A stretch of 64,000 nt of DNA, from assembly GCA_041658665.1 (NCBI GenBank), contig JBAZZR010000002.1:9147-73146 (forward strand). Direction: 5' to 3'. The DNA is from Patescibacteria group bacterium (GTDB lineage Bacteria > Patescibacteriota > Patescibacteriia > Patescibacteriales > UBA12465). The notes beneath the pieces are model-generated. The model ran no database searches. It was not told where the DNA came from and saw nothing but the letters and a program-made list of their open reading frames with translations. The translations under genes and the position numbers were made by a program. Shown here in pieces: positions 4,361-44,659 of this stretch (positions are counted from its first letter, which is position 1; each line of letters begins with the position of its first letter).

Positions 4361-4507
4361 ATGAGTATTTTGTCTCTTAAGAAAAGCCTTCCTAAGAGAT
4401 AAATTTAATTGTTAATTTATTAAGTTAGTTATTTTACTCTGGCCAAGATTTATGACGTCATCTGCTAACTAATACGCCCCTAACAAAAAACTTCTTCGCC
4501 TCTAAAA

Positions 4508-5335
4508 TTAATCTGCAGACGGACGACCCGGCGGCCGCTTAAAATCAGACGGGGGTGAACAGTCGTCATCCGGACAACGTTCGTGAATTATACGGCGCAT
4601 ACTCGGCCGCTTAAAAAATCCCCGGCCCGAATGGATCGTCTTCACTAAAGTAGAAGAAAATTTCTTCTCGGCGGAAGCCTGACCGACCATGCGAACAGGC
4701 GAACCAACAACTATCTCCGAATAATCATCATCATCGGCAGCGTAACTAACTTGCCAAAGTTCACCGGCGGGATCGATAATCGTAAAACTATTTTGCTTAC
4801 CTTGTTCGACGACTATTCCGGCCAAACGACCTTCTAAAGGGCTGGACCAAAAAGGCACCTGTTGATTTATGACGGTATCATACCAAGGAACCTGAGCCCC
4901 TAAAACATCATCGATTTCTTCGCCTAAGCCGGAGAGAAAAAATACAGCGCCTAGAATAACACTTACTAATATAGAAAATAAAGCAATAAACCAAACTGGA
5001 TACTTATAACCCCGCTTAGTATGTTTAAAATTATAATAAAGAATATAAACGAAAATGCCTAAAAAAATCAACCAAAAATAAGGCAAAGTCAGAAGAAAAA
5101 ATTCCCCGAAACTCTTCTGCGCCTGATCATATATTTCCCAGTCATTATATTTTAATAAGTAGAGTAGGACTGAAACAGCGGCCGCGCCGATAAGAAGCGC
5201 TAGAATTCCGGCGGCCCAAATAACATAATTTTTTAATAAAAAATGCCAGCGCGGTCGCGGCGCGATTTTCTCTTCTTTAATCTTCGCTACTAGCTTCTGA
5301 TCAAAGTTAAGTTCTGCTTGGTGATCTAAATCCAT
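4508..5335 (-). CDS. membrane protein, putative anti-sigma factor partner of the upstream ECF sigma
   Basis: Immediately downstream of the ECF sigma gene (10-nt gap). Short cytoplasmic N-terminus, several TM helices and an extracytoplasmic C-terminal domain. No zinc anti-sigma motif seen. Confidence 0.4.
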   Translation of the reverse strand: MDLDHQAELNFDQKLVAKIKEEKIAPRPRWHFLLKNYVIWAAGILALLIGAAAVSVLLYLLKYNDWEIYDQAQKSFGEFFLLTLPYFWLIFLGIFVYILYYNFKHTKRGYKYPVWFIALFSILVSVILGAVFFLSGLGEEIDDVLGAQVPWYDTVINQQVPFWSSPLEGRLAGIVVEQGKQNSFTIIDPAGELWQVSYAADDDDYSEIVVGSPVRMVGQASAEKKFSSTLVKTIHSGRGFFKRPSMRRIIHERCPDDDCSPPSDFKRPPGRPSAD

Positions 5336-7635: not shown

Positions 7636-10600
7636 TTACGGTTGGAACTCAAAAGTCGGCCCGACAAAATGCATTTGATCTAAAACCGTGTCAGTTTTCG
7701 GCATGATGCCAGCAATTATCGCGCTCTGACCAGAAAAATCTTCAACAATATCGCCCACTTTACTAAATTCTTTTTCTTTAATCATCATCTGAGCATCGCT
7801 AAAACCAATATAAACGGGAAAATATTGCCGATTACTAAGCACTATTATATCAAAATTAGAAATATTATTTTTTAATTTTTCTGGTAAACTATTTTTATCA
7901 CCTTGATAAAAAATGTCGACCCCTGCCTCTTCGACGATTACTTTTAAATTAGCAACCCTCGTCATTTTAGCCAGCGTAGCCTTATTAACCAGGTGATAAT
8001 TATCAACTAAAGTTCCGGTCGGCTCCAATATCCCGACAATTTTAACAGTAGCTAGCCCAAAAAAATCCGTTAAACTATCACCCGGACCCTTAATTAAATT
8101 CTCTTTTTTCATCATCATCGCCTCGTCATAACCAATAATCATTTCATTATCGCCTAGGACTGAAACTCCCTCTTGAATTTTAACCAAATCGGGTAAACTG
8201 TCGACACCTAAAAATAATTTAGGATTATCGTCACCAAAGTTAATTTTGGTTTCATTCCCAGCCACAAAAGTATTAAGAGCTGAAGCGGTTTTGACCGAAA
8301 CGATAGCGGTCGAGCCGCCAGTCTCCATGCCCGAACTCAGCCGCGCAAATTCTAAGAAAGCTAGAGTAAAAACTATCACCATAACAACGGGAGCAATTAA
8401 TGATAAATAATTCCGCTTATTAGGTTTGAAATAACGAAGTAAAAGCGAATTGCCGACTACTGAGATAGAGCTCATCGCCATCGCTAAACCGGCTAACTCT
8501 GGTTTTAAAACCAAACCAAATTTAATGAAAAGACGAGCGGCAATCGGAATGCCAATCACATTATAAAATAAAGCAAAAAACATATTCTGCTTGATCTTAC
8601 TCATAGTCTCGCGGGAAAGCTGAAAAGCGCTCACAACATCATTTAAATCATTCTTCATAATTACAATCCCCCCCGTTTCCATCGCCACATCCGTGCCCGA
8701 ACCCATCGCGATACCGAGGTCGGCCTGTGCTAAAGCGGGCGCATCGTTAATCCCGTCGCCAACCATCGCGACCTTATTACCTCCCGCCTGTAATTTTCTG
8801 ACCTCACTGGCTTTATCTTCTGGCAAAACTTCCGCTAAAACATTGGTAATTCCGACTTGGCTAGCGATGGCTTTCGCCGTACGCTCGTTATCGCCGGTAA
8901 TCATATAAACCGTAAGACCTAGTTTTTTTAAGCGAGTGATCGCTTCCGACGAACTCGCTTTAACGGTATCAGCGACCGCGATCACGCCTAAGATTTTTTC
9001 TTTAGTAGCTAAAATCATCGCCGTTTTACCCGCCTCTTCTAGCTTAATCAATTTACGATTTAGCTTATCAATTGAGTGACCGAGGATATCGGTGACCAAA
9101 CGACGATTACCAAAATAATATTCGACCTTATCAATTAGACCCTTAACCCCGTGGCCCGCGATGGCTGAAAAATCGGTAACTTCATCCAGACTAATCGACT
9201 CCTGATTGGCGTGAGTATAAATCGCTTCCGCCAGAGGATGTTCAGAGAGTTTTTCAAGACTAGCAGCGATGGCTAAAATTTCCTCCTCCTCTAGATTTTC
9301 GAAAGCTATGATATCAGTTACTTCCGGCCGGCCGTAAGTTAAAGTACCCGTCTTATCAAAAACAATAGTCTTAATATGACAAGCCGCTTCTAACGGTTCC
9401 CCGCCTTTAATAAGTATTCCGTATTCCGCGCCCTTGCCTGTTCCGACCATTAGCGAAGTCGGCGTGGCTAAGCCGAGTGCGCAAGGACAAGCAATAACGA
9501 TAACTGAGGTAAAAGCCATGAGAGCGAAAGACAATGAAGCTCCTAAGAAAAAATACCAAACTAGAAAAGTAATAATCGCCAGACCAATAACCGTCGGCAC
9601 AAAAACGGCCGAAATTCGATCAGCGAAACCTTGAATCGGCGCTTTAGAACCCTGGGCTTCTTCCACTAAACGAATAATCTGGGCGAGCACGGTTTCACTG
9701 CCCACGCTAGTTACTTTAAATTCAAAGCTACCCGTTTTATTAATTGTGGCTCCGACTACTTTATCGCCTACTTTTTTCTCGACCGGCAGACTTTCCCCGC
9801 TAATCATCGATTCGTCTACGGCCGAGGAACCTTTAACTATTTGACCATCGACAGGAATTTTTTCACCAGGACGGACTAAAACAATATCGCCATGAATGAC
9901 TTCATCAATCGCAATATCTAGAGTCGAGCCATTACGAATTACCCGGGCCGTCTTAGCTTGCAGCCCCATTAATTTTTTAATCGCGTCGCCCGTCTTTCCT
10001 TTAGTACGAATTTCTAACCATTTGCCTAGAATAACAAAGGTGATTAAAAAGGCCGCTGTTTCAAAATATAATTCCGGGATCTTACCATTTAAACCAAGAA
10101 CCGACTGAGTCTTAATAAAATAGTTAATAAAATTAATTAAGCTATAAAGATAAGCCGTCGAAGTACCGATGGCAATCAGGCTATCCATGTTAAAAGTCTT
10201 CATCTTCAAGGCTGACCACATCCCCTTATAAAATCCCGCCCCAATAATAAACTGAACAGGCGTTGTTAAAATCAGCGAAACTATTCCGACCCAAGGTAAA
10301 ACCGCGGCTTGGCCGGGAATAGCGAAAAAATCCAGCAACATAAAGTAAAGCATCGGTAAACTAAGAGTAAAACTAAACCAAAATTTCTTAAAATAAAATT
10401 TAATCTCCTGCTCTCTCTTCCGGCGGTCATAATCATTATCTTTAGTATCGACGAGCTCGGCTTTATAACCAGCTTTTGCAATAGCTTCTAAAAAAGCTGG
10501 TAATTTCACTTGCGTTTCGTCGTAGACAATATTCGCTTTTTCCGCCGCAAAATTAACATTCGCCTGAGATACCCCCGGCACTTTCTTTAAAGATCGTTCA

Positions 10601-11298
10601 ATAATATTAGCGCAAGATGAACAATGCATCCCGAAAAGCGACAAACTAATTCTCTGGTTAGTGTTTTGTCCAGTTAGCGATTCCTTTTCCTTAACACCGC
10701 TAACGACCAAAGAAGGTGCCACTGATTTATTCGATTTATCATTAATACTACCACCAGACAATAATTCAAATAGACGAGCGATACTGACCGTCTTACCGAG
10801 CTGTCCAACTAAACGCTCAATCTCGGGACGATTTTCAGGAATGACAAACTCCGCTGAATGATTATTATTAATCACCCCTTCAAAATAAGTTTTTCCCTGA
10901 TCATTTTCCATAACTCGTCCTTCCGCCGCCGTTTTAGTTTCTAATTTTACACGCAGCGGTTCCGTATTCTTGGAATAACGGCTAGAAATATTAACCTCTT
11001 TTTTTTCTGGCGCTGTTTCCTCGGCCTGTCTATCTTTATTTTCTTCATCAAGAGAATTCGTCTTCATATCTACTGCCATCTCCGACTGGACCTTAGCCTG
11101 ATAACCGGCCTTATTAATAGCCCTTACGACCGCCGCTAAATTATTTTTCTCTTCATCAAGAATTAATTCGGCCGCCGCTTTTGACGAACTAACCGTAATA
11201 TCGCTTAATCCCGGTAAATCCGCCAGTTCCGCTTTAATTAAAGTCTCACAAGAAGAACAATGCATTCCTTCTATCTTCAATAGTATTTTCTTAATCAT
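7636..11298 (-). CDS. copA: copper-translocating P1B-type ATPase with two N-terminal HMA domains and a ~270-aa C-terminal extension
   Basis: GMHCSSC present twice, CPC motif ([12 protein letters not shown]), [15 protein letters not shown]. An extra TM helix and a duplicated module follow the normal end of the core ([10 protein letters not shown]). Confidence 0.9.
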
Positions 11299-11528: not shown

Positions 11529-13376
11529 TTATTCGACGATAACCGAACCGTAATTAATCATCCCCATACTACAAGTAATGTCGTAAGAACCGGGCGTAGT
11601 CGGGGTAAATTCCATCGTAATCGGCGTTCCCGCTCGTAATGGCACAACTTCATCATACAGTTGAGGAATGGTAATCGCGTAGCCGCAACCGCTACCGCTA
11701 TCGCGCACATCAATTTCGAGTCTAACTTTCGTCCCCGCCTTAACTTTAAAAATGGCTGGATCAAGATATTTAGCATCCGTATAAGTTGTCTTGATAATCT
11801 GAACCGCCTCTTGGCCAGAAACAGCTTGAGTCGTTGCTACGGCCACTGGACTAGAATCTATATTAGTTGGCCTTTTACCGCCGCCGCCACAACCACAGCC
11901 GCCGCCGCCCGTGCCACAAGTTCCGCCGCTATTACCACTAGCTATGGCCGCCGGAATAGCCGTAATATCAGCATTACTATTATTAACACTAGCGGGAATA
12001 TCACCACTAAAAACATCAAATACCCCGGTATACATTCCCATAGAACAAGAGAAAGGTAATTGACCAGATTCCGTTGGCGTAAATTCAATAATATTTTCCC
12101 CGGCCTTTAAAAACTTCTGAATCTTTAATTTAGGAATAAGGAGAACACTAGCACAAGAATAAGGCGCTTTCGCTTCAATAATCCATTTAACTGGCACGCC
12201 CTGCTTAATAGAAAACTGATTAGGCGAATAACCGCTATTAGTTTCCGTCATGCGGACAACCTGGACGCCGTTCTCTAGAGTCACATTAGGATCCTTATTA
12301 ATTCCTGAGGACTGTTTAACTCCGGCACTACCTAAAAAACCGGCGCTTAAACTCGCTAAAGTATAACCATTATTAAGGTTAAATAAAGCAAAAAATATTA
12401 CCGCTAAACCAGCAACTTTAAAAAACCGTTCTTTAAAAGAACCTTTAATTAAAGAAGTCAGACCGCCGATACTTAAAAGTCCTGGCGCCGTACCAAGAGC
12501 AAAGAGACCCATAACTAAAGCACCAGATCCAAAATTACCGGTACTAATTGCGTAAAGCTGCATCGCTTGAGTAAAGCCGCAGGGCAAGAAAAATGTTAGC
12601 GCCCCCATTAACATCGCCTTCTCATGACTATAAACCTCATGCTTGCGACTAGCTCCTAAGGCTCTACTAATCCCTTTTGGCAAAGATAATTTAAACTTAT
12701 TCAAACGCGGAAAAATATTAATGAGCTGTAAACCCATAACGAGCATTACTACCCCGACTAGCAGGGTCAGCAAACCATTAGCCAAAGGCGACAGCTGAAA
12801 AACCGTGCCGAGAACGCCGAGTAAACCGCCTAGAAAAGCATAAGATAAAATGCGGCCGATAGTGAAAAAAATATGCGGCCGAAATTTTTCCGCTGGCGTC
12901 GCCGTCGGATGATGTTCTACGAACTTAGTTGATAAGCCTAGAACTAACCCGCCGACTAAAGCCATACAAGTTGAAAAACCAGCCACGAGTCCGATAACAA
13001 TAATCAAACCAAAACTCGGATTACTAATATTAGGCGTGAGATTAATATTAGTCAGACCTAGACCTCTAAGAACAAGGTACAGGGCCATGAGCATTAAAAA
13101 AGCTACTCCGAGACTAGCGTATTCGCGCTTATCACGAGTAAGAAAAGGAAGCTCGTCCGTGGTGCCGACTTCGTAGCCGGCTTCAGCAATCGCTTGCTTA
13201 ATGAGATTCATATCTGGCGCACTATTCTTATAATGAATAGTCGCCTCGCCCGTTTTATAGTTTAAAGCTGCTGACTGAACCGACGCGAGCGCTTGAAGTT
13301 TTTCTTCGATCAAAATTTCACAAGAGCGGCAGTGCATACCCCGAATGGGTACTTTTAAATATTTATTATGAGACAT
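11529..13376 (-). CDS. HMA domain - polytopic DsbD_2/TauE-like membrane domain - two cupredoxin-like domains
   Basis: N-terminal GMHCRSC. Membrane Cys motifs GFSTCMAL and FFLPCGF. Two C-terminal beta domains each end in CSMGM, joined by a GGTCGTGGGGCGCGGGG linker. Confidence 0.7.
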   Translation of the reverse strand: MSHNKYLKVPIRGMHCRSCEILIEEKLQALASVQSAALNYKTGEATIHYKNSAPDMNLIKQAIAEAGYEVGTTDELPFLTRDKREYASLGVAFLMLMALYLVLRGLGLTNINLTPNISNPSFGLIIVIGLVAGFSTCMALVGGLVLGLSTKFVEHHPTATPAEKFRPHIFFTIGRILSYAFLGGLLGVLGTVFQLSPLANGLLTLLVGVVMLVMGLQLINIFPRLNKFKLSLPKGISRALGASRKHEVYSHEKAMLMGALTFFLPCGFTQAMQLYAISTGNFGSGALVMGLFALGTAPGLLSIGGLTSLIKGSFKERFFKVAGLAVIFFALFNLNNGYTLASLSAGFLGSAGVKQSSGINKDPNVTLENGVQVVRMTETNSGYSPNQFSIKQGVPVKWIIEAKAPYSCASVLLIPKLKIQKFLKAGENIIEFTPTESGQLPFSCSMGMYTGVFDVFSGDIPASVNNSNADITAIPAAIASGNSGGTCGTGGGGCGCGGGGKRPTNIDSSPVAVATTQAVSGQEAVQIIKTTYTDAKYLDPAIFKVKAGTKVRLEIDVRDSGSGCGYAITIPQLYDEVVPLRAGTPITMEFTPTTPGSYDITCSMGMINYGSVIVE

Positions 13377-36411: not shown

Positions 36412-37137
36412 CTATTTGATAATGACAGTCGTACCAGTCGCTACTCGGTCAAAAAGATATTTAGCGTCACCGACTCCTAAGCGAATACAACCATGAGAAA
36501 CGGCTTGGCCTAAATGATTCGCCCCTTCGCGATAACCACCCGGCCAAATCGGTAATTCATGAATACCAAATTCCCCGCGATTAAGACCGAGCCAATAAGG
36601 CATCCATAATTTATAAGTTTTCGACCAAGCCTTCGACGATTTATTAATTACCGTAAAATTACCGCGCGGCGTCGGCATACTCGGTTTACCGGTTGAAACT
36701 ACCATCTTCTTCCAGGCTTGGCCAGCAATAAAATAAGTTAATTGTTGTTTCTTGGTATCGATTTCAATCCGGGGGACTAATTTTTTAGTTGAAGAAGATA
36801 GGGGATTATAAAGAGAATCAAGCTCTTCTTTATCTTTAAAGCCATCCCCGTCGGAATCCGGATCTAAAGGATTAGTTTTAAATTTTAGCTCCCAATAATC
36901 GCTTAAGCCATCGCTATCGGCATCACTTTTTTCTAATTTAAGCGGTCGCGAATTAAAAGGTGAATAATTATTTTTAAGTTCTAACTGATCAGAATAACCG
37001 TCACCGTCCGTATCAATATTATCTGAGTCACTCGCTAAAAGAGGCTGGGCCGAAAAAACAAAAAATAACAACATTATTATAAATTTTGCATAATCTAATT
37101 TTAAATAACCTAATTTTGAATTTATCGACCTACTCAT
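36412..37137 (-). CDS. L,D-transpeptidase (YkuD) with N-terminal thrombospondin-type-3-like Ca-binding repeats
   Basis: Repeats DTDGDGYSD, DADSDGLSD and DPDSDGDGFKD; catalytic SHGCIRL. Confidence 0.85.
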   Translation of the reverse strand: MSRSINSKLGYLKLDYAKFIIMLLFFVFSAQPLLASDSDNIDTDGDGYSDQLELKNNYSPFNSRPLKLEKSDADSDGLSDYWELKFKTNPLDPDSDGDGFKDKEELDSLYNPLSSSTKKLVPRIEIDTKKQQLTYFIAGQAWKKMVVSTGKPSMPTPRGNFTVINKSSKAWSKTYKLWMPYWLGLNRGEFGIHELPIWPGGYREGANHLGQAVSHGCIRLGVGDAKYLFDRVATGTTVIIK

Positions 37138-38768
37138 AGTTTAAGAGAACAATAATATTCACAACCGCAAAACTTTTGACGATAAAGACCAAGCTCTTTG
37201 GCTAAGTCCTGGCTAAGGCGGTAAGCGTTGTCAGCTTGAAAATCTTCGTCTAAAAAAGTTACCGCGTGAAGACCAGCAATTTCGCGGCTAATCGCTTTAA
37301 TCGCGGCGGCGTCCTTATAAGGACTAACTAATAAAGTAGTGCTAAAATAATCAAATTTCTCCTGGCTCGCGAGACGTCCCGTTGCCTCTAACCGGTCGCG
37401 ATAACAAATGCGGCAGCGCTCTCCTCGCTCGGCGTCAGCCGCCCGACCACTCGTTTTAGTCTGCCAAGCGCTATGTTCATAAGGCTCAATTAATAAACTA
37501 AAATTAAATTTCGCCGCCATCGCCTTAACCGCTGCTAAACGTTTTTCGTATTCTTCTAAAGAAGCTAAATTAGGATTATAAAAATACCAGGTTATAGAAA
37601 AACGAGACGCTAAACGATACTGACTAATATAAGTACCACAAGGGGCACAACAAATATGTAGAAGTAAAGTTTTTTTCAAATTAGGCGCCCCGTCGTTATC
37701 ACTACGAGTTCTGACCAGATTTTTCCTCGCCTGGCGCTGACGATCGAAAGCCCAAAAACCAATAACTAGTAAAAGCATAATCACGACGAGAACTAAAAGC
37801 GCTAAAAATTTTCCCCGACTTTGTAAAAAGAGTCCGCTCAAACCGAACACTAAAGACAAAATATAAAAAATTGAAACGGTCTGACGTTGGCTTAAGCCCA
37901 AATTAAGTAACCGGTGATGCAAATGTTCACGATCCGCGAAACGGAAAGGATTTTTTCCTAAGCTTAAACGGCGCATAATAGTCCAAACAACATCTAAAAT
38001 AGGAATACCCATAATCAGAAGAGCGATCGCGATCTTGGCTCCCGAAATAATCGCCAAAACGCCTAAGATATAACCTAAAAGAAGCGATCCTCCTTCGCCT
38101 AAAAAAATCTTAGCCGGATGCCAATTCCAAATTAAAAATCCTAAAGACGCTCCCGATAGAAGAATCGCGGCGAAAGCAATATCCGGCTGATAATAACGAG
38201 TAGTTAGAGTAAACAAAAAAATAATAAAACCGCCAATGGCGACTATCCCCGAAACTAAACCATCAACACCGTCTAAAAGCTTAGTCGTATACATCATTCC
38301 TAACAGCCAAAGACTAATGATAATAGGCGAGATAAAGAATAAAGAACGAAGATCAAGTAGCCCGCCTAACGGATTACTGAGCCGAACAATTTCTACTCCC
38401 CCGCCAATAACAGCGATAATCGCTAGTAGGGGAAAAATAATCTGACGCTGCGGCGCTAAGTTATAACGGTCGTCTAAAATGCCGCCAATACTAATAATTA
38501 AAGCGCCACCAAAAAAACCTAGTAAGTGAGACCACTCCAAATTTCCCGCCAAAAAATGCCGACTAAATAAAAACAATAAAATAAAATAGGCGCTAAAAAT
38601 AGCCAGGCCGCCTAAAAGCGGCGTCGCTTGAGTATGGATTTTTCTTCCTTGCGAAGGATTAGAATCTGGCCGATCTAAAACTTGCCAATAAAAAGCGAGC
38701 TGGCGGACGCCAGCACTGAGGAGCGCCGTTAAAACTAAAGCGGCTAAAAAAATTAAAAAATAAAACAT
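37134..38768 (-). CDS. GT4 (MraY/WecA-family) polyprenyl-phosphate sugar-phosphate transferase fused to epoxyqueuosine reductase QueH (DUF208)
   Basis: About 340 aa of 10-11 TM WecA-like sequence (DDRYNL, TTKLLDGVDGL). Then LLLHICCAPCG...FYNPNL...RCRICYRDRLE...LVSPYK...LGLYRQKFCGCEY, the QueH signature. Confidence 0.8.
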   Translation of the reverse strand: MFYFLIFLAALVLTALLSAGVRQLAFYWQVLDRPDSNPSQGRKIHTQATPLLGGLAIFSAYFILLFLFSRHFLAGNLEWSHLLGFFGGALIISIGGILDDRYNLAPQRQIIFPLLAIIAVIGGGVEIVRLSNPLGGLLDLRSLFFISPIIISLWLLGMMYTTKLLDGVDGLVSGIVAIGGFIIFLFTLTTRYYQPDIAFAAILLSGASLGFLIWNWHPAKIFLGEGGSLLLGYILGVLAIISGAKIAIALLIMGIPILDVVWTIMRRLSLGKNPFRFADREHLHHRLLNLGLSQRQTVSIFYILSLVFGLSGLFLQSRGKFLALLVLVVIMLLLVIGFWAFDRQRQARKNLVRTRSDNDGAPNLKKTLLLHICCAPCGTYISQYRLASRFSITWYFYNPNLASLEEYEKRLAAVKAMAAKFNFSLLIEPYEHSAWQTKTSGRAADAERGERCRICYRDRLEATGRLASQEKFDYFSTTLLVSPYKDAAAIKAISREIAGLHAVTFLDEDFQADNAYRLSQDLAKELGLYRQKFCGCEYYCSLKL

Positions 38769-38798: not shown

Positions 38799-41489
38799 TT
38801 ATAAAGCCAACGCCTTTTCGATTTTAATATTAGCTTGCTTATCAATAATAACATTATCGCGGCGCTTTAGTTCGCCACTCAGAATTTTAGTCGCAATAAT
38901 ATCTTCAACTTTATCTTGAAGCAGCCGGCGTAAAGGACGAGCGCCAAATTTAGGATCATATCCTTCTTTAGCTAGTATCTCTACCCCGGCCTTATCGGCT
39001 TTTAGCCCGATCCCCTTATCCGCTAAACTTTTCTTAATCTTTTTAAGCATTAAAGTCGCTACCGTAAAGACGTCTTCCTCACTTAACGGTTTAAAAACAA
39101 TAATGCCGTCGAAACGATTAATTAATTCCGGCCGCATGTACTGATTAAGCTGATTATCAATTAATTCTTGTTTAATTAAATTAAGAGCGGTTTTAGCTTT
39201 AATCTGTTCTTGAATATATAAAGCGCCAATATTAGAAGTCGCGATAATAATAGACTCGGCGAAACTAATCGTCCGCCCCTGCCCGTCCGTCAGTCGGCCG
39301 TCATCGAGCATTTGTAAAAATAAATTTAAAATATCGGGATTAGCTTTCTCGATTTCGTCTAAAAGAACTAACGAAAAAGGTTTTTTCCGAACCGCTTCCG
39401 TTAAATATCCTAGCGTCCCGTCGACATCGCCGATCATCTTCTTAATACTATCGGAAGATTGATATTCGCTCATGTCTAAACGCACTAAATAATCTTCATC
39501 GCCGAAATAAATCTCACTAACTGATTTGGCCAACTCCGTTTTACCGACACCGGTCGGACCAAGAAATAAAAAACTGGCAATCGGCCGTTTACTATCTTTC
39601 ATTTCCGCCCGCGCGCGTCGTAAACTCGCCGCGACGGCCCCGACCGCCTCTGACTGTCCGACTAAACGACGATGAATCTCACTTTCTAAGTTAAGTAATT
39701 TCTGACTCTCGGAAATGGTTACTTTACTAGCAGGGATACCGGTTAATTCGCTAATCGCCGCCGCGACCTGCTCTCGGCCACAAAAACATTTAGTCGGATC
39801 GTCTTTCAATTCTTGCGCCGTAATAATAGCGGCTTTTTCTAATAAATTAATGGCCTTAAGCGGTAAAAATTGATCATGCAAGTAACGACTCGACATGGCG
39901 ACCGCCTGCTCTAAAGCGCTATAAACGATATAAATATCATATTTTGATTCTAAAACGCCGACCTTACTCTCTAAAATTTGAATAGCTTCATCGAACTCCG
40001 GCTCTTTAACTCCAATAGTCGTTAGTCCGTTACCTAAGGCTTTATTTTCGATATAGCGAGTATAGTTTTCCGACGTCGCTGTCGCTAGACAATAAATCTG
40101 ACGACGCCCGAGAGATTCCGCTAGAACCTCAGACACATCCAGACTCTCCTGATTACCGGCGCTAATACCAATTAAATTTTCTATATTATTAATGTATAGT
40201 ATAATGTTGCCGGAACGAGCTAGTTCGTTTAAACTAGTGAGAAGGCGTTCTTGGGCTTGGCTCGGATCGGCCCCCGCCAGTAAACGTGAGACATCAAGCT
40301 CTACTAAACGCTTATCCTTTAAAAACGCCGGAACATTTTCTTCGACCATTAACTGCGCTAGGCCACTGACAATCGCCTTCTTGCCGACCCCCGATGGTCC
40401 GACTAAAAGGACCCCGTTATGTCCGCCGCTAAAAGATTCAAAAATAGAATTGATCTCTTTCTGCCGACCAACACAAATTTCTAAATTTCCCATCTTCGCC
40501 TCAATTGTTAAATCGTGACCAAAATGGTCGAGCGTTGGGGTCGCGATGGCGGTATAAGCGCGATTCATATTACTACCTGGTTTTAAAAGCGCTAAACGCC
40601 GATAATTATGATAACTCTCTAAAAGACGCCGGTTGACTCGAAACCAAGCGACGGTATTATAAATCTTCGCGAGATCAATTTCTAATTCATCTAAAATTTC
40701 CCTTAAAGAATCGTTCTTATCATAACAAAATAAAATAATATTTAAGACGTCGACACTGTTTTGCTGAAGACGACAGGCGTCAGCAAAAGCCGACACTAAA
40801 ATTTCCTGTAAATTCGCGGCTAATTCAATATGACCAAGTCTTTTTTTGTCGAACGGTTCAGCTAAATGTCGGTCGACTAAGCTTACTAATCTTTTAGCGT
40901 CAACATTTAAACGAATAAAAAGATTCTGAATTTCTTTATTTTTTAAAAGTACTCGAAAAAGATGAATAACTCCCACTTCTGATTGACGTAATGAATTCGC
41001 TAAAAGATAAGCCTCCTCAATTATTTTAAAACTACTAGCCGAATAAGCGCCCGCTACATTATATTTCCGACTAGATTTACGACTCGCCTGAGTTGGTTTT
41101 TTAGAATTTGCCGAAAAAAGTCGATAATTGATTTTTTGGTCAGAAATTTTAGCCCGGCTGACTGAATAGATTAAAAATAAATCAAACCATAAAGATAAAA
41201 CAAAAATAAAAATCAAAGGATCGAAATCATGAGCTAAAAGCGCCTTAAGGGGTTGAGCAATAAAGCCGACCCGATGCTGAAATAACCAGACGCCACCCGC
41301 TAACCAACCCACTAAAACAACGAGCCAATTCAAAAATCTCAAAAAATAAGTAATTTTTTCTTTAACGCGACCTAAACGTATTATTGAACCACGTAAATCG
41401 CTACCCCAAAAAATAAAACGACCCAAAAACCAGGCGCCGGGACGACCACTGTTTTGTTCGGCAGTAAAATTTAATTTCTCCATCGACAT
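38799..41489 (-). CDS. membrane-anchored Clp/Hsp100-family AAA+ protein with a degenerate first ATPase module
   Basis: N-terminal TM helices and Clp_N-like repeats. D1 has GPSGVGKK with Walker B ILYINNIENL (DE replaced by NN). D2 is intact ([26 protein letters not shown]). Confidence 0.8.
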   Translation of the reverse strand: MSMEKLNFTAEQNSGRPGAWFLGRFIFWGSDLRGSIIRLGRVKEKITYFLRFLNWLVVLVGWLAGGVWLFQHRVGFIAQPLKALLAHDFDPLIFIFVLSLWFDLFLIYSVSRAKISDQKINYRLFSANSKKPTQASRKSSRKYNVAGAYSASSFKIIEEAYLLANSLRQSEVGVIHLFRVLLKNKEIQNLFIRLNVDAKRLVSLVDRHLAEPFDKKRLGHIELAANLQEILVSAFADACRLQQNSVDVLNIILFCYDKNDSLREILDELEIDLAKIYNTVAWFRVNRRLLESYHNYRRLALLKPGSNMNRAYTAIATPTLDHFGHDLTIEAKMGNLEICVGRQKEINSIFESFSGGHNGVLLVGPSGVGKKAIVSGLAQLMVEENVPAFLKDKRLVELDVSRLLAGADPSQAQERLLTSLNELARSGNIILYINNIENLIGISAGNQESLDVSEVLAESLGRRQIYCLATATSENYTRYIENKALGNGLTTIGVKEPEFDEAIQILESKVGVLESKYDIYIVYSALEQAVAMSSRYLHDQFLPLKAINLLEKAAIITAQELKDDPTKCFCGREQVAAAISELTGIPASKVTISESQKLLNLESEIHRRLVGQSEAVGAVAASLRRARAEMKDSKRPIASFLFLGPTGVGKTELAKSVSEIYFGDEDYLVRLDMSEYQSSDSIKKMIGDVDGTLGYLTEAVRKKPFSLVLLDEIEKANPDILNLFLQMLDDGRLTDGQGRTISFAESIIIATSNIGALYIQEQIKAKTALNLIKQELIDNQLNQYMRPELINRFDGIIVFKPLSEEDVFTVATLMLKKIKKSLADKGIGLKADKAGVEILAKEGYDPKFGARPLRRLLQDKVEDIIATKILSGELKRRDNVIIDKQANIKIEKALAL

Positions 41490-41529
41490 ATAAGAGGCTG
41501 ACTAGATTGCCTAGCACAATCAAAAAAAT

Positions 41530-41898
41530 TTAATGTAAAAATTGAAAAACGGAAATTAGCAAAAGAAGAGGAAAAGACAAAAGCCAGGCAACTAAAATAA
41601 ATAAAACCACTAAAAACCAAACTAATAAAACCGCCCCCCGAAAAATAATTTGAATGAGGCGCATAATAAAACTGATAATTCGACTAGCCATATCGCGCTG
41701 GCCATACATCGGCACAAAAATATTCTTGAGCCAAATACTAAAACCGAGAGCTTTTTCTTGACCGCGCCAAAATTTCACTAAATTCTTAAGTAAGAGCATT
41801 AAACCGACGCTGTACCACCAAATTGGAAAATACAAAATTTCTCCTAAAATCTGAAAAATAATCTTGCCGCTATAAGTTAAAAAATTGTTTTCAAGCAT
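41530..41898 (-). CDS. small polytopic membrane protein, co-oriented upstream partner of the anchored Hsp100 paralog
   Basis: 122-aa hydrophobic ORF, 40 nt upstream of 41489. Confidence 0.45.
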   Translation of the reverse strand: MLENNFLTYSGKIIFQILGEILYFPIWWYSVGLMLLLKNLVKFWRGQEKALGFSIWLKNIFVPMYGQRDMASRIISFIMRLIQIIFRGAVLLVWFLVVLFILVAWLLSFPLLLLISVFQFLH

Positions 41899-41927
41899 AT
41901 CATTATAATAGCATGATTATTTTCCGA

Positions 41928-41956
41928 TTGACAACTAATCGGCCTTATATTATGAT
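41928..41956 (+). promoter_or_regulatory. sigma-70-type promoter of clpB
   Basis: TTGACA (41928-41933), 17-nt spacer, TATGAT (41951-41956). Confidence 0.55.
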
Positions 41957-41961
41957 ATAAA

Positions 41962-41988
41962 TTAGCAGTCTCTTAATAAGAGTGCTAA
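41962..41988. promoter_or_regulatory. CIRCE element (HrcA operator)
   Basis: TTAGCAGTC-N9-GAGTGCTAA versus the consensus TTAGCACTC-N9-GAGTGCTAA (1 mismatch). Lies between the promoter and the clpB start. Confidence 0.8.
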
Positions 41989-42007
41989 TAACTCTTACCA
42001 CAATTAT

Positions 42008-44659
42008 ATGCTTAATAATATGTTCAATAAATTCACGGATAAATCCCAAGAAGCTATCATTAACGCTCAAATAATCGCGACCAGCTACGGCCAAGCGAAT
42101 ATTGAGGCGGTTCATATCCTGCTTTCCCTTCTGCAACAGAATGAAAGTTTAATCAAGCCGATTTTAGAAAAAATGAAAATCGATCCGGAAATAATCGAAG
42201 AATATACAATTATTGCTATCCAAAAACTACCTCGCTTTAAAATAAACCCGAGCGGCGGCCCGGTACAGGCCGTCTCGGGTACAGCGGAAACAGCGGTGAT
42301 TTTAGAACGAGCGCAAAAAGAAGCTGACGGGATGAGCGATGATTTTATTTCTACTGAACATATTCTTCTCGCCTTGATCGGCGTTCCCTCGCCGGCCCAA
42401 ACTATTTTACTTAATTTTAAAGTCGACTACCAAAGCGTTAAAAATATCCTAAAAGAACTCCGCGGCTCGCAAACGATTACCGATCCCTTTCCGGAAAATA
42501 AATATAAAGTGCTAGAAAAATATACAACTAATCTAACCGAACTGGCCCGCCAGGAAAAACTTGACCCCGTCGTTGGTCGCGATCAGGAAATTCGCCGCAT
42601 TATGCAGGTACTTCTGCGCCGCACTAAAAATAATCCGGTTCTTATCGGCGAAGCCGGTACCGGTAAAACCGCGATTGTCGAAGGCTTAGCGCAAAGAATA
42701 ATTACCGGCGATGTTCCAGAAAATCTTAAAAATAAAGAAATAGTTACGCTTGACCTCGGCGCTTTAGTCGCCGGCGCCAAGTTCCGCGGCGAATTTGAAG
42801 ATCGCCTAAAAGCCGTTCTAAAAGAAGTAAAATCCCAAAATGGCCGCATCATCTTATTTATTGATGAACTCCATACTTTAATCGGCGCCGGCGCCTCGGA
42901 AGGATCGATGGACGCTTCTAATATGTTAAAGCCCGCTCTCGCCCGGGGCGAACTCCGGACTATTGGCGCGACGACGACTAAAGAATACCAAAAATATATC
43001 GAAAAAGACGCCGCGCTAGAAAGAAGATTCCAACCAATTTATGTCAGCGAACCTAGCGTGGACGATACTATTAGTATGCTCCGCGGACTTAAAGAAAAAT
43101 ATGAAGTCCATCACGGCGTTCGGATTACCGATAACGCCCTAATTGCGGCAGCCAAACTCTCTAATCGTTATATTAGCGATCGTTTTTTGCCCGACAAAGC
43201 CGTAGACTTAATCGACGAAGCGACTTCTTCGCTCCGGATGGAAATCGATTCCATGCCCGATGAACTCGATCAATTAAAAAGAAAAATAAATCAATTAGAA
43301 TTAAATAAAGCGGGGCTAATGACTACCGACAAAAAATCTTCGAAACTACGGACCTTAAATATCGAATTAGCTAAACTAAAAGAAAAAGCCGACCAATTAG
43401 AACTCCACTGGAACAACGAAAAAATGATTATCTCTCAAATTCGGGAATCAAAAAAAGCCATGGAGGATCTAAAAATAAAAGCGGAAATCGCTCAACGACA
43501 AGGCGCTGATTTAACCGAGGTCGCTAAAATAAAATACGGTCTAATCCCGGAACTGGAAAATAAAATTAAAAACTCTCAAGAAGAATTATTAAAGATTCAA
43601 AAAAAAGGACAAAGAATTTTAAAAGAAGAAGTTGATGAAGAAGATATCGCTAAAGTCGTCGCCCGCTGGACCGGTATTCCGGTCAATCGCATGTTGCAAG
43701 ACGAAATTTATAAATTAAGCGCCGCGGAAACCGCTTTGAATAAAGAAGTCGTGGGCCAAGACGAAGCGATTAAAGCAGTAGCTAACGCCCTCCGCCGCAG
43801 CCGCGCCGGCATTAACGAAGAAAAAAAACCAATCGGTTCTTTCTTATTTGTCGGACCGACCGGTGTCGGAAAAACCGAATTAGCTAAAGCGCTAGCTAAT
43901 TTTATTTTCGACGACGAAAAAGCCCTAATCCGTTTAGACATGAGCGAGTTTATGGAAAAACATAGCGTCGCGAAACTAATCGGCTCGCCTCCCGGCTACG
44001 TTGGTTATGACGAAGGCGGACAATTAACCGATCGCGTCCGCCGCCATCCTTATAGCGTCGTTTTGTTCGACGAAATTGAAAAAGCTCATCCGGATATGTT
44101 TAATATGCTTCTGCAAATTTTGGATGATGGACGCCTAACCGATTCTAAAGGACGAACAATCAATTTCAAAAATACCATAATTATCATGACTTCAAATCTG
44201 GGAAACGAAATTATCAAACAATATTCCATCGGCTTTAATGACGCGAGCGATAAAGACCAAGCCACTAAATTCCGAACCGAAGAGATGAAAGAAAAAATCG
44301 ATAAAATTTTGAAGAATCATTTTAAACTCGAATTTTTAAATCGCATCGACGAAATCGTCCTCTTCCGCAGTCTCACGCCCGAAGCGCTCGAGCGGATTGT
44401 TGATCTCGAATTACTAAAAGTGGAAAAAAGATTAGGTAATAAAAATATTCTAGTTAAAGTCAGCCCGAAAATCAAAAAACTCTTAGCCGAAAAGGGTTAT
44501 GATATAAGTTACGGCGCCCGCCCCTTAAAACGAATAATTCAAACAATGATTCTCGACGAATTAGCTTTAGAAATAATTGCCGGAAAAATAAAGGAAGGCG
44601 ATAAAGTAAAAATTGATTTAGAAGAAAAAGAAAAAGTAGTCTTAAGAGTGAATGGCTAA
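42008..44659 (+). CDS. clpB: chaperone ClpB (true start probably MFNKF at 42020)
   Basis: Clp_N domain, two intact AAA+ modules ([16 protein letters not shown]; [19 protein letters not shown]) and a long coiled-coil middle domain. Confidence 0.9.

Follow-up and report, generated by a model that had tools for sequence, protein, structure and literature searches.

Class I Clp/Hsp100 proteins of the HCLR clade, such as ClpC and ClpB, are built of an N domain (Clp_N), two AAA+ modules (D1 and D2) and a D2-small domain, and aromatic pore loops are important in Clp/Hsp100 proteins for gripping the substrate (PMC5425593). Torsins, which are relatives of Clp/Hsp100, lack such loops, are associated with membranes and rely on membrane cofactors (PMC5425593). 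In Pex1/Pex6 the D1 ring is inactive and bears no aromatic loops, and the complex is tethered to a membrane (PMC9265785). FtsH (see PMC7949044) is an AAA+ ring at the cytoplasmic face of the membrane with two N-terminal transmembrane (TM) helices and a short external loop. Here we describe a Clp/Hsp100 paralogue, referred to as TM-Clp, and a small membrane protein encoded next to it, in a 64,000-nucleotide stretch of DNA from a Patescibacteria group bacterium (GCA_041658665.1, contig JBAZZR010000002.1, positions 9,147 to 73,146, forward strand). This whole stretch is called the window, and coordinates are counted from its first letter.

TM-Clp has 896 aa (38799..41489, minus strand, as are all its features given below) and was characterized from its open reading frame (ORF), Pfam, NCBIfam, BLASTP and phmmer. 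The ORF of the 122-aa small membrane protein (41530..41898, minus strand) ends 40 nt upstream of it, and the ORF list places both frames where a first-pass annotation of the window had put them. The gene pair is genuine, strongly conserved and widespread in Patescibacteria, and we hold the identity and architecture of TM-Clp with high confidence.

TM-Clp has the hallmarks of class I Clp/Hsp100: tandem AAA+ modules, AAA_2 (635-794, 173.6 bits) then ClpB_D2-small (802-881, 79.2 bits), and an N-terminal Clp_N, in the same order Clp_N, D1, D2, D2-small as ClpC and ClpB; Pfam also detects AAA_lid_9 at 500-568 (45.1 bits). Its top sequence matches in the PDB are ClpC and ClpB (440 and 424 bits), which are also its top fold matches, and its D2 is 43% identical to that of the neighbouring ClpB. 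The scores of the subfamily models all remain far below their cut-offs: 557.5 bits against 1232.1 for ClpB (TIGR03346, in two stretches), 464.3 against 993.15 (TIGR02639) and 324 against 1350 (PRK11034) for ClpA, and 428 against 885 for ClpV/TssH; genes of a type VI secretion system were found in none of the neighbourhoods inspected. Thus TM-Clp falls in none of these subfamilies, a placement relative to ClpA/B/C/E/L/V that rests on NCBIfam and PDB scores. Compared with ClpC and ClpB, it has an additional TM hairpin, no middle (M) domain, no ClpP loop and a truncated D2 pore loop; neither the catalytic Glu nor the arginine fingers nor the pore tyrosine is found in its D1. Instead of the competent D1 and pore tyrosines of ClpB it carries NN, GNGLT, AGADPSQAQE and GTLG, the canonical feature being present each time in 0 of 121 close homologs. 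ClpA has the same N-D1-D2 organization without M domain, but is less similar in sequence (296 bits), and TM-Clp differs from it by its dead D1, its membrane anchor and the lack of an IGL/IGF loop.

The other systems each resemble TM-Clp in part. By analogy, its N-terminal two-helix anchor is like that of FtsH, but TM-Clp has two Clp-type AAA+ modules, no Peptidase_M41 match and no aromatic pore loop. Torsins with their cofactors LAP1/LULL1 share with TM-Clp of the window's clade an N-terminal hydrophobic membrane association, the lack of aromatic loops and the presence of membrane cofactors; they have, however, a single AAA+ module whose arginine finger is supplied by an AAA-like cofactor. TM-Clp is not a member of the Torsins because its D2 keeps its own arginine finger (R792, invariant) and because its partner is helical, without AAA fold. 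Pex1/Pex6 with Pex15/PEX26 (and also the D2 of NSF) provides a similar case of a double ring with an inactive scaffold ring, tethered via a small membrane protein. In contrast to TM-Clp, Pex1/Pex6 belongs to another AAA clade, is anchored through its partner only, and has a D2 that keeps aromatic loops and threads.

Architecture of TM-Clp

The N-terminal region of TM-Clp contains two hydrophobic segments, at residues ~46-70 (41280..41354) and ~88-112 (41154..41228), with Kyte-Doolittle peaks of 1.88 and 2.36 respectively; in the 121-sequence close-homolog set the median peaks are 2.07 and 1.95. Both are predicted TM helices; in the AlphaFold2 (AF2) model (pLDDT 80.2) helices span 34-71 and 91-116. 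Hydrophobic helices had been proposed over residues ~20-110; two are indeed found, but residues 8-27 form short beta strands in the AF2 model rather than a membrane helix. These strands belong to a basic tail (residues 1-45; 41355..41489) that is modelled as a small beta structure and carries the conserved motif GAWFLGRF(L/I)xWG. The second predicted helix is followed by a basic linker (residues 113-145), with pLDDT below 50 at 129-138. Lys and Arg amount to 8 in the N-terminal tail (against 4 Asp and Glu), about 9 in the linker after the second helix and 2 in the loop between the helices. According to the positive-inside rule, this distribution argues for a cytoplasmic location of the AAA+ body. 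The N-terminal hydrophobic segment or hairpin is present in 102 of 102 full-length distant representatives. The membrane tethering proposed at first thus agrees with both the conservation of the hairpin and the charge distribution, and anchoring of TM-Clp in the membrane by its two predicted N-terminal helices is supported by sequence. An N domain of the Clp_N type follows (residues ~144-300; 40590..41060): PF02861 matches at 160-209 with 25.8 bits (cut-off 20.7), and in BLASTP residues 144-290 align with the corresponding domain of the neighbouring ClpB.

D1 (residues ~320-570; 39780..40532) gives no strong match to PF00004 in Pfam. Alignments with the neighbouring ClpB (BLASTP) and with B. 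subtilis ClpC of the PDB (phmmer) bear out the substitutions initially noticed: Walker A is GPSGVGKK (40377..40400), Walker B is ILYINNIENL (40173..40202), and the arginine-finger region is ALGNGLTTI (40014..40040) in place of ALERRFQPI. A motif census of the 121 close homologs places them in the context of the family. The Walker-A Lys is kept in 115 sequences and the following Ser or Thr in 106; the Walker-B Asp is kept in 106, while the catalytic Glu is found in 0, its position being occupied by Asn in 118. The arginine fingers and the pore aromatic of D1 are likewise absent from all 121. Of 103 distant representatives, 2 have the Walker-B Glu and 9 the RR pair. The proposal of a catalytically dead D1 therefore extends to the close homologs. 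The family consensus is GK[S/T] and D-N, the mark of a site where nucleotide may still be bound but hydrolysis is no longer possible; GKK and NN of the query are an additional degeneration. Judged from these motifs, D1 of the TM-Clp family is hydrolysis-incompetent yet constrained.

D2 with its D2-small domain (residues 573-896; 38799..39773; Pfam and motif checks) has all its ATPase motifs: Walker A, Walker B (LLDEIEKA), sensor 1 (TSN), arginine finger (NRFD) and sensor 2 (GARPLRR). The catalytic residues are invariant, R792 of the arginine finger included, and the pre-sensor insert is also fully conserved. Nearly all of the 102 full-length representatives keep intact D2 ATPase motifs, the exceptions being two degenerate sequences, P0378 and P0331. 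D2 had been called intact; this is correct for the ATPase motifs but not for the pore loop (GDVDGTLGY, residues 687-695; 39405..39431). Relative to ClpB and ClpC, the region GDVDGTLGYLT has a deletion of 5 residues, and Thr stands where the GYVG tyrosine would be. Helices 681-686 and 695-702 are only 8 residues apart in the AF2 model. The loop has 8 residues in 121 of 121 close homologs (13 in ClpB), and the GYVG tyrosine occurs in 0 of 121. Y695 was considered as a displaced pore tyrosine and rejected: as the first residue of helix 695-702 it caps this helix in the AF2 model, and its counterpart in E. coli ClpB is the Tyr of GGYLTEAV. In distant representatives the D2 loop has between 7 and 13 residues and a variable sequence; it contains an aromatic residue in 19 of 103, mostly as PPGY or PPGF and within one subclade. 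The D1 pore loop, AGADPSQAQE, is non-aromatic and acidic. Thus, neither ring carries an aromatic paddle in the window's clade.

Two further features are missing from TM-Clp, in agreement with the initial description. The ClpA model aligns to TM-Clp as a single stretch (155-882), and the link from D1-small to D2 is ~15 residues long compared with ~140 in the neighbouring ClpB, i.e. there is no M domain. The linker that replaces it (residues 555-572; ~39774..39830) contains a nearly invariant Pro565 and Cys570 (..DPTKCFCGRE.. in 64 homologs). The ClpP-docking loop (an IGF, VGF, LGF or IGL tripeptide in D2) is absent from TM-Clp because a gap of 10 aa relative to the neighbouring ClpB covers its site. 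A deletion of 6-10 residues at this site is found in every member examined (70/70 GTDB, 102/102 representative and 35/35 metagenome sequences), which upholds the proposed independence from ClpP. No ClpP is encoded within the 64-kb window.

The small partner and the extent of the family

The 122-aa protein has a hydrophobic helix (~13-37), a conserved basic loop and a long hydrophobic C-terminal helix (~88-121); its AF2 model has three helices (pLDDT 86.9). The loop contains the highly conserved motifs FVPMYGQRD and MRLxQIIFRG, and the invariant residues of the protein cluster in this basic central part (YFPxWWY, NxFxPMYGQxD and GRxISFxxRLxQ). It belongs to no family of Pfam, NCBIfam or PADLOC, and a fold search of the PDB gave nothing below E=2. 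A word-index search returned 319 homologs, almost all of 120-125 aa, and at least 571 GTDB species (one genome per species) have a relative.

The co-occurrence of the two genes was counted in three samples. Close loci are the best 80 GTDB loci, with counts restricted to those with enough room around the gene: in 77 of 78 the partner gene is followed directly by the N-terminus of TM-Clp on the same strand. The diverse sample consists of metagenome contigs collected by a scan seeded on a distant partner, with matches 28-51% identical to the seed; pairing is found in 60 of 63 loci. For distant cluster representatives a partner homolog is located immediately upstream in 6 of 7 (hmmsearch E 1e-18 to 1e-35; hhalign 99%), amid otherwise unrelated genes (DsbA, pilins, tRNA synthetase, polyketide synthase, SMC). 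Two of these six partner genes are not called in public predictions (L091, ~4635-4997; L093, ~4487-4999). The exception is P0393 (L087/L088), a protein of 841 aa and the weakest match listed, which keeps RRFQ in D1 and has a prepilin-like gene (FTLIEILIA) upstream; it may mark the edge of the TM-Clp family. The pairing suggested by the first-pass annotation is thus borne out by all three samples, and they support the 122-aa protein as an obligate, functional partner of TM-Clp.

A full-length search with TM-Clp gave more than 1000 matches at E<=1e-50. Identity is 65-96% for the top 120, which are ~890-900 aa long, come from metagenome-assembled genomes (MAGs) of Patescibacteria or Falkowbacteria, and bear the generic name "ATP-dependent Clp protease ATP-binding subunit (ClpC)". 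When residues 1-570 were compared exhaustively by HMMER with 1.84 billion cluster representatives (50% identity), 1051 clusters matched at E<=1e-30. The best 150 are mostly 850-960 aa long with 29-40% identity; the majority of their alignments start at about residue 20 and the others at about 90-160, within or just past the TM region, and all extend to ~560. The protein had at one point appeared rare, a word-index search with residues 1-330 giving only 8 truncated fragments, but the full-length and HMMER searches showed this to be an effect of the tool. Many contigs titled "uncultured Gammaproteobacteria bacterium" (L007, L008, L011, L013 and others) carry a Patescibacteria-type cluster with 60-70% identity to Falkowbacteria; these titles look wrong.

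Selection was measured against the 96%-identical ortholog of locus L005. The dN/dS of TM-Clp is 0.044 overall: 0.153 for the tail and TM region, 0.055 for Clp_N, 0.016 for D1 and 0.023 for D2; that of the small partner is 0.071. Constraint on the dead D1 thus equals that on the live D2, and purifying selection is strong on every domain.

Neither protein has a curated family model in Pfam or NCBIfam. Full-text literature searches returned no description of a membrane-anchored Hsp100 family of this kind, nor any paper on TM-Clp or on the pair, consistent with the first impression of an uncharacterized arrangement; Clp, AAA and WecA go unmentioned in a paper on Patescibacteria genetics (PMC10633639). 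TM-Clp is an Hsp100 by descent, and what is new is the combination of its features, described for no characterized member: an integral anchor, an obligate small subunit and one dead ring, in a protein that has lost its ClpP loop, M domain and pore paddles.

Genomic neighbourhood of the pair

The third gene of the recurrent cluster starts 30 nt downstream of TM-Clp (37134..38768, minus strand). It encodes a polyprenyl-phosphate sugar-phosphate transferase (GT4, residues ~1-350) fused to QueH (Pfam PF00953 and PF02677). The GT4 part matches WecA over its full length (TIGR02380 of NCBIfam, 101 bits, below cut-off) and better than it matches MraY. GT4 is downstream of TM-Clp in 66 of 66 close loci with room, in 19 of 36 diverse loci and in 3 of 7 distant representatives. 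Among these three, P0269 (1231 aa; L092 4240..7935, GCA_964470025.1) has GT4 fused to the C-terminus of TM-Clp. At the junction the end of D2-small is joined directly to the conserved first cytoplasmic loop of GT4 (...PRKIHTKPTPLLGG), and the first TM helix of GT4 is missing. This arrangement makes the topology coherent and argues that P0269 is a genuine fusion rather than the product of a lost stop codon. Between the loss of pore aromatics and GT4 adjacency there is only a trend (Fisher p=0.09, without phylogenetic correction). This link to GT4, absent from the first-pass annotation, is the strongest functional lead.

The other genes of the window operon encode an L,D-transpeptidase, a secreted beta-propeller protein, a polytopic membrane protein and a PDZ protein; by its predicted products the operon points to the envelope. 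A role in anti-phage defence was considered and rejected: PADLOC gave only generic matches at the level of D2 (PDC-M37B, DolB) and none for the partner, and the context is one of envelope and housekeeping genes.

Queuosine genes recur in the cluster for no obvious reason. Fusion or adjacency of GT4 and QueH is seen in 60 of 66 close loci, and in other lineages the small partner gene is immediately preceded by a tRNA-guanine transglycosylase (TGT) gene; queuosine genes also occur at L086, L092 and ~9 metagenome loci.

On the other side of the pair, clpB (883 aa; 42008..44659, plus strand; TIGR03346) is divergent, separated by an intergenic region (41899..42007) with promoter-like pairs for clpB (TTGACA/TATGAT, plus strand) and for the small gene (TTGTCA/TATTAT, minus strand). 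This region contains a CIRCE element (controlling inverted repeat of chaperone expression), the operator of HrcA, TTAGCAGTC-N9-GAGTGCTAA (41962..41988, plus strand), with one mismatch. No second site of this kind occurs in the window; the element sits between the promoter and the start of clpB. The back-to-back arrangement had been noted at the outset. It does not belong to the conserved module and is clade-specific: 58 of the 80 closest loci have a divergent clpB upstream, but in the diverse sample a ClpB-specific (M-domain) match is found in 2 loci only, and ClpB is at 0 of 7 distant loci. CIRCE adjoins clpB in 59 of 80 loci and remains with clpB where another gene intervenes. A heat-shock or ClpB-partner role was therefore rejected as a general explanation, since the adjacency and the operator are clade-specific and CIRCE tracks clpB.

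The neighbouring ClpB had been described as canonical. It has a full ClpB M domain and scores 1206 bits with TIGR03346, just under the cut-off of 1232, but it also possesses a ClpC-type IGF loop (KQYSIGF, D2 residues ~735-745), kept as KQY[ST]IGF in 58 of 58 loci. Its counterparts in the alignment are the LGF/AGF loops of ClpC1 and of S. aureus ClpC, whereas T. thermophilus ClpB has no such loop. The protein thus resembles a ClpB/ClpC hybrid of natural origin, similar to BAP, an engineered variant.

Elsewhere in the window, two adjacent ORFs on the minus strand (7636..11298 and 11529..13376; 1220 and 615 aa) each begin with a GMHCxxCE motif of the heavy-metal-binding type and may be tandem metal-transporting ATPases.

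Proposed mechanism and alternatives

We propose that TM-Clp and its partner form a ClpP-independent AAA+ complex of the membrane, driven by D2, that remodels or regulates its targets rather than threading them and is linked to envelope biogenesis. We put the probability of this reading at about one half, with moderate to low confidence in a mechanism that is non-threading and envelope-linked. TM-Clp would derive from a double-ring Hsp100 of the ClpC/ClpB type, and its two-TM hairpin would hold the ring, presumably a hexamer, at the cytoplasmic face of the membrane. The inactive D1, possibly still binding nucleotide, would be a structural or assembly ring like the inactive ring of Pex1/Pex6. 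D2 would be the sole motor, its hydrolysis driving conformational work with neither ClpP docking nor a DnaK-coupling M domain, and the conserved basic loop of the partner would contact the cytoplasmic part of the ATPase. Canonical threading is doubtful because both rings are devoid of a pore aromatic and the D2 loop is shortened. For these same reasons it appears likelier that ATP hydrolysis by D2 powers the remodelling, assembly or regulation of membrane proteins than their processive threading and unfolding. The WecA-like phosphoglycosyltransferase would then be the likeliest client or functional neighbour, leading to the biogenesis of cell-envelope glycopolymers. For a non-threading Hsp100 relative that works with membrane cofactors, Torsins are the closest analogy.

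Several points weigh against this proposal. The fusion of TM-Clp to GT4 is seen in one MAG only, and adjacency to GT4 is missing at about half of the diverse loci and is seen in 0 of 5 members of the PPGY clade; the linkage could in part be inherited gene order. The fusion also raises a structural difficulty: with the N-terminal anchor by D1 and GT4 by D2, both in the membrane, the two ends of the barrel would be at the membrane, which is hard to reconcile with an upright canonical hexamer. The D1 of the query itself (GKK, NN) may be unable even to bind Mg-ATP. Non-aromatic pore loops of other AAA+ proteins can contact substrate. Finally, since one subclade keeps PPGY or PPGF in a D2 loop of near full length, the ancestor may still have threaded, and perhaps some members do.

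One alternative is a processive unfoldase or extractor which, like FtsH minus its protease, Msp1 or Pex1/Pex6, would pull membrane or secreted proteins through its pore without ClpP. The first-pass annotation favoured such a membrane-localised unfoldase; its membrane location and its independence from ClpP have stood, but the unfoldase part is at odds with the lack of pore aromatics in both rings. The fully conserved ATPase site and pre-sensor insert of D2, the anchor resembling that of FtsH and the aromatic loops of some family members fit an unfoldase, and threading coexists with an inactive D1 in Pex1/Pex6 (PMC9265785). Yet the canonical tyrosine is in none of the close homologs, whose D2 loop is five residues short, the D1 loop is non-aromatic and acidic, and a D2 loop so variable in length and sequence is unlike a conserved element for gripping substrate. 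Moreover Torsins, as relatives of Hsp100 that lack loops of this kind, do not act as processive unfoldases (PMC5425593). We consider an unfoldase possible, though on balance unlikely. It is less probable still that the ring sits on a channel formed by the TM hairpins and the partner and pushes a polypeptide or a lipid-linked glycan through it, in the manner of HSP101-EXP2 in PTEX (Plasmodium translocon of exported proteins). The obligate membrane partner and the envelope genes of the cluster (WecA-like GT4, L,D-transpeptidase, secreted beta-propeller) would suit such a secretion motor, but aromatic loops for polypeptide transport are lacking, the most conserved part of the partner is its basic, presumably cytoplasmic loop and not its TM helices, and searches of Pfam and of PDB folds revealed no likeness to a known channel or flippase.

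TM-Clp could instead be a membrane-bound regulator or adaptor of the heat-shock ClpB, possibly of ClpB-ClpP, acting through mixed assemblies or recruitment to the membrane. The divergent pairing with clpB in most of the closest loci, the shared promoter region with its CIRCE operator, and the Clp_N and ring-forming domains retained by TM-Clp are in line with this. We find it improbable: the adjacency is restricted to one clade and almost lost in the diverse and distant loci, CIRCE is kept by clpB wherever a gene lies in between, and the invariant catalytic residues of D2 argue for an ATPase activity of its own. The degenerate D1 motifs and pore loops could also evoke a decaying, functionless duplicate of ClpC or ClpB. 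But dN/dS is between 0.016 and 0.15 in all domains, length and architecture are conserved over more than 1000 clusters, and the partner gene is conserved with them; because of these selection and conservation data the idea is so improbable that we regard it as ruled out.

The membrane AAA+ complex driven by D2 also admits a stronger form, which we advance as speculative and rather unlikely: TM-Clp would be the first membrane-integral Hsp100 and a bacterial "torsin-like" switch, non-threading, in which D2 as the one active ring, together with the obligate subunit, would use ATP to assemble, activate or quality-control the WecA-like phosphoglycosyltransferase that starts synthesis of a cell-surface glycopolymer. 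If true, Clp/Hsp100 proteins would gain a new functional class, and the envelope of the Candidate Phyla Radiation would have a control point that spans the lineage.

Soluble threading is the textbook picture of Hsp100, and a family built into the membrane challenges the assumption that all Hsp100s thread. Most TM-Clp lineages have lost the aromatic pore paddles, and purifying selection is strong nonetheless; the family is also a natural experiment on the purpose of an inactive D1 ring. More than 1000 protein clusters are at present misleadingly annotated as "ATP-dependent Clp protease ATP-binding subunit ClpC". The conserved pair, with its link to a WecA-like enzyme, is an entry point to the poorly understood envelope biology of the ultra-small Patescibacteria.

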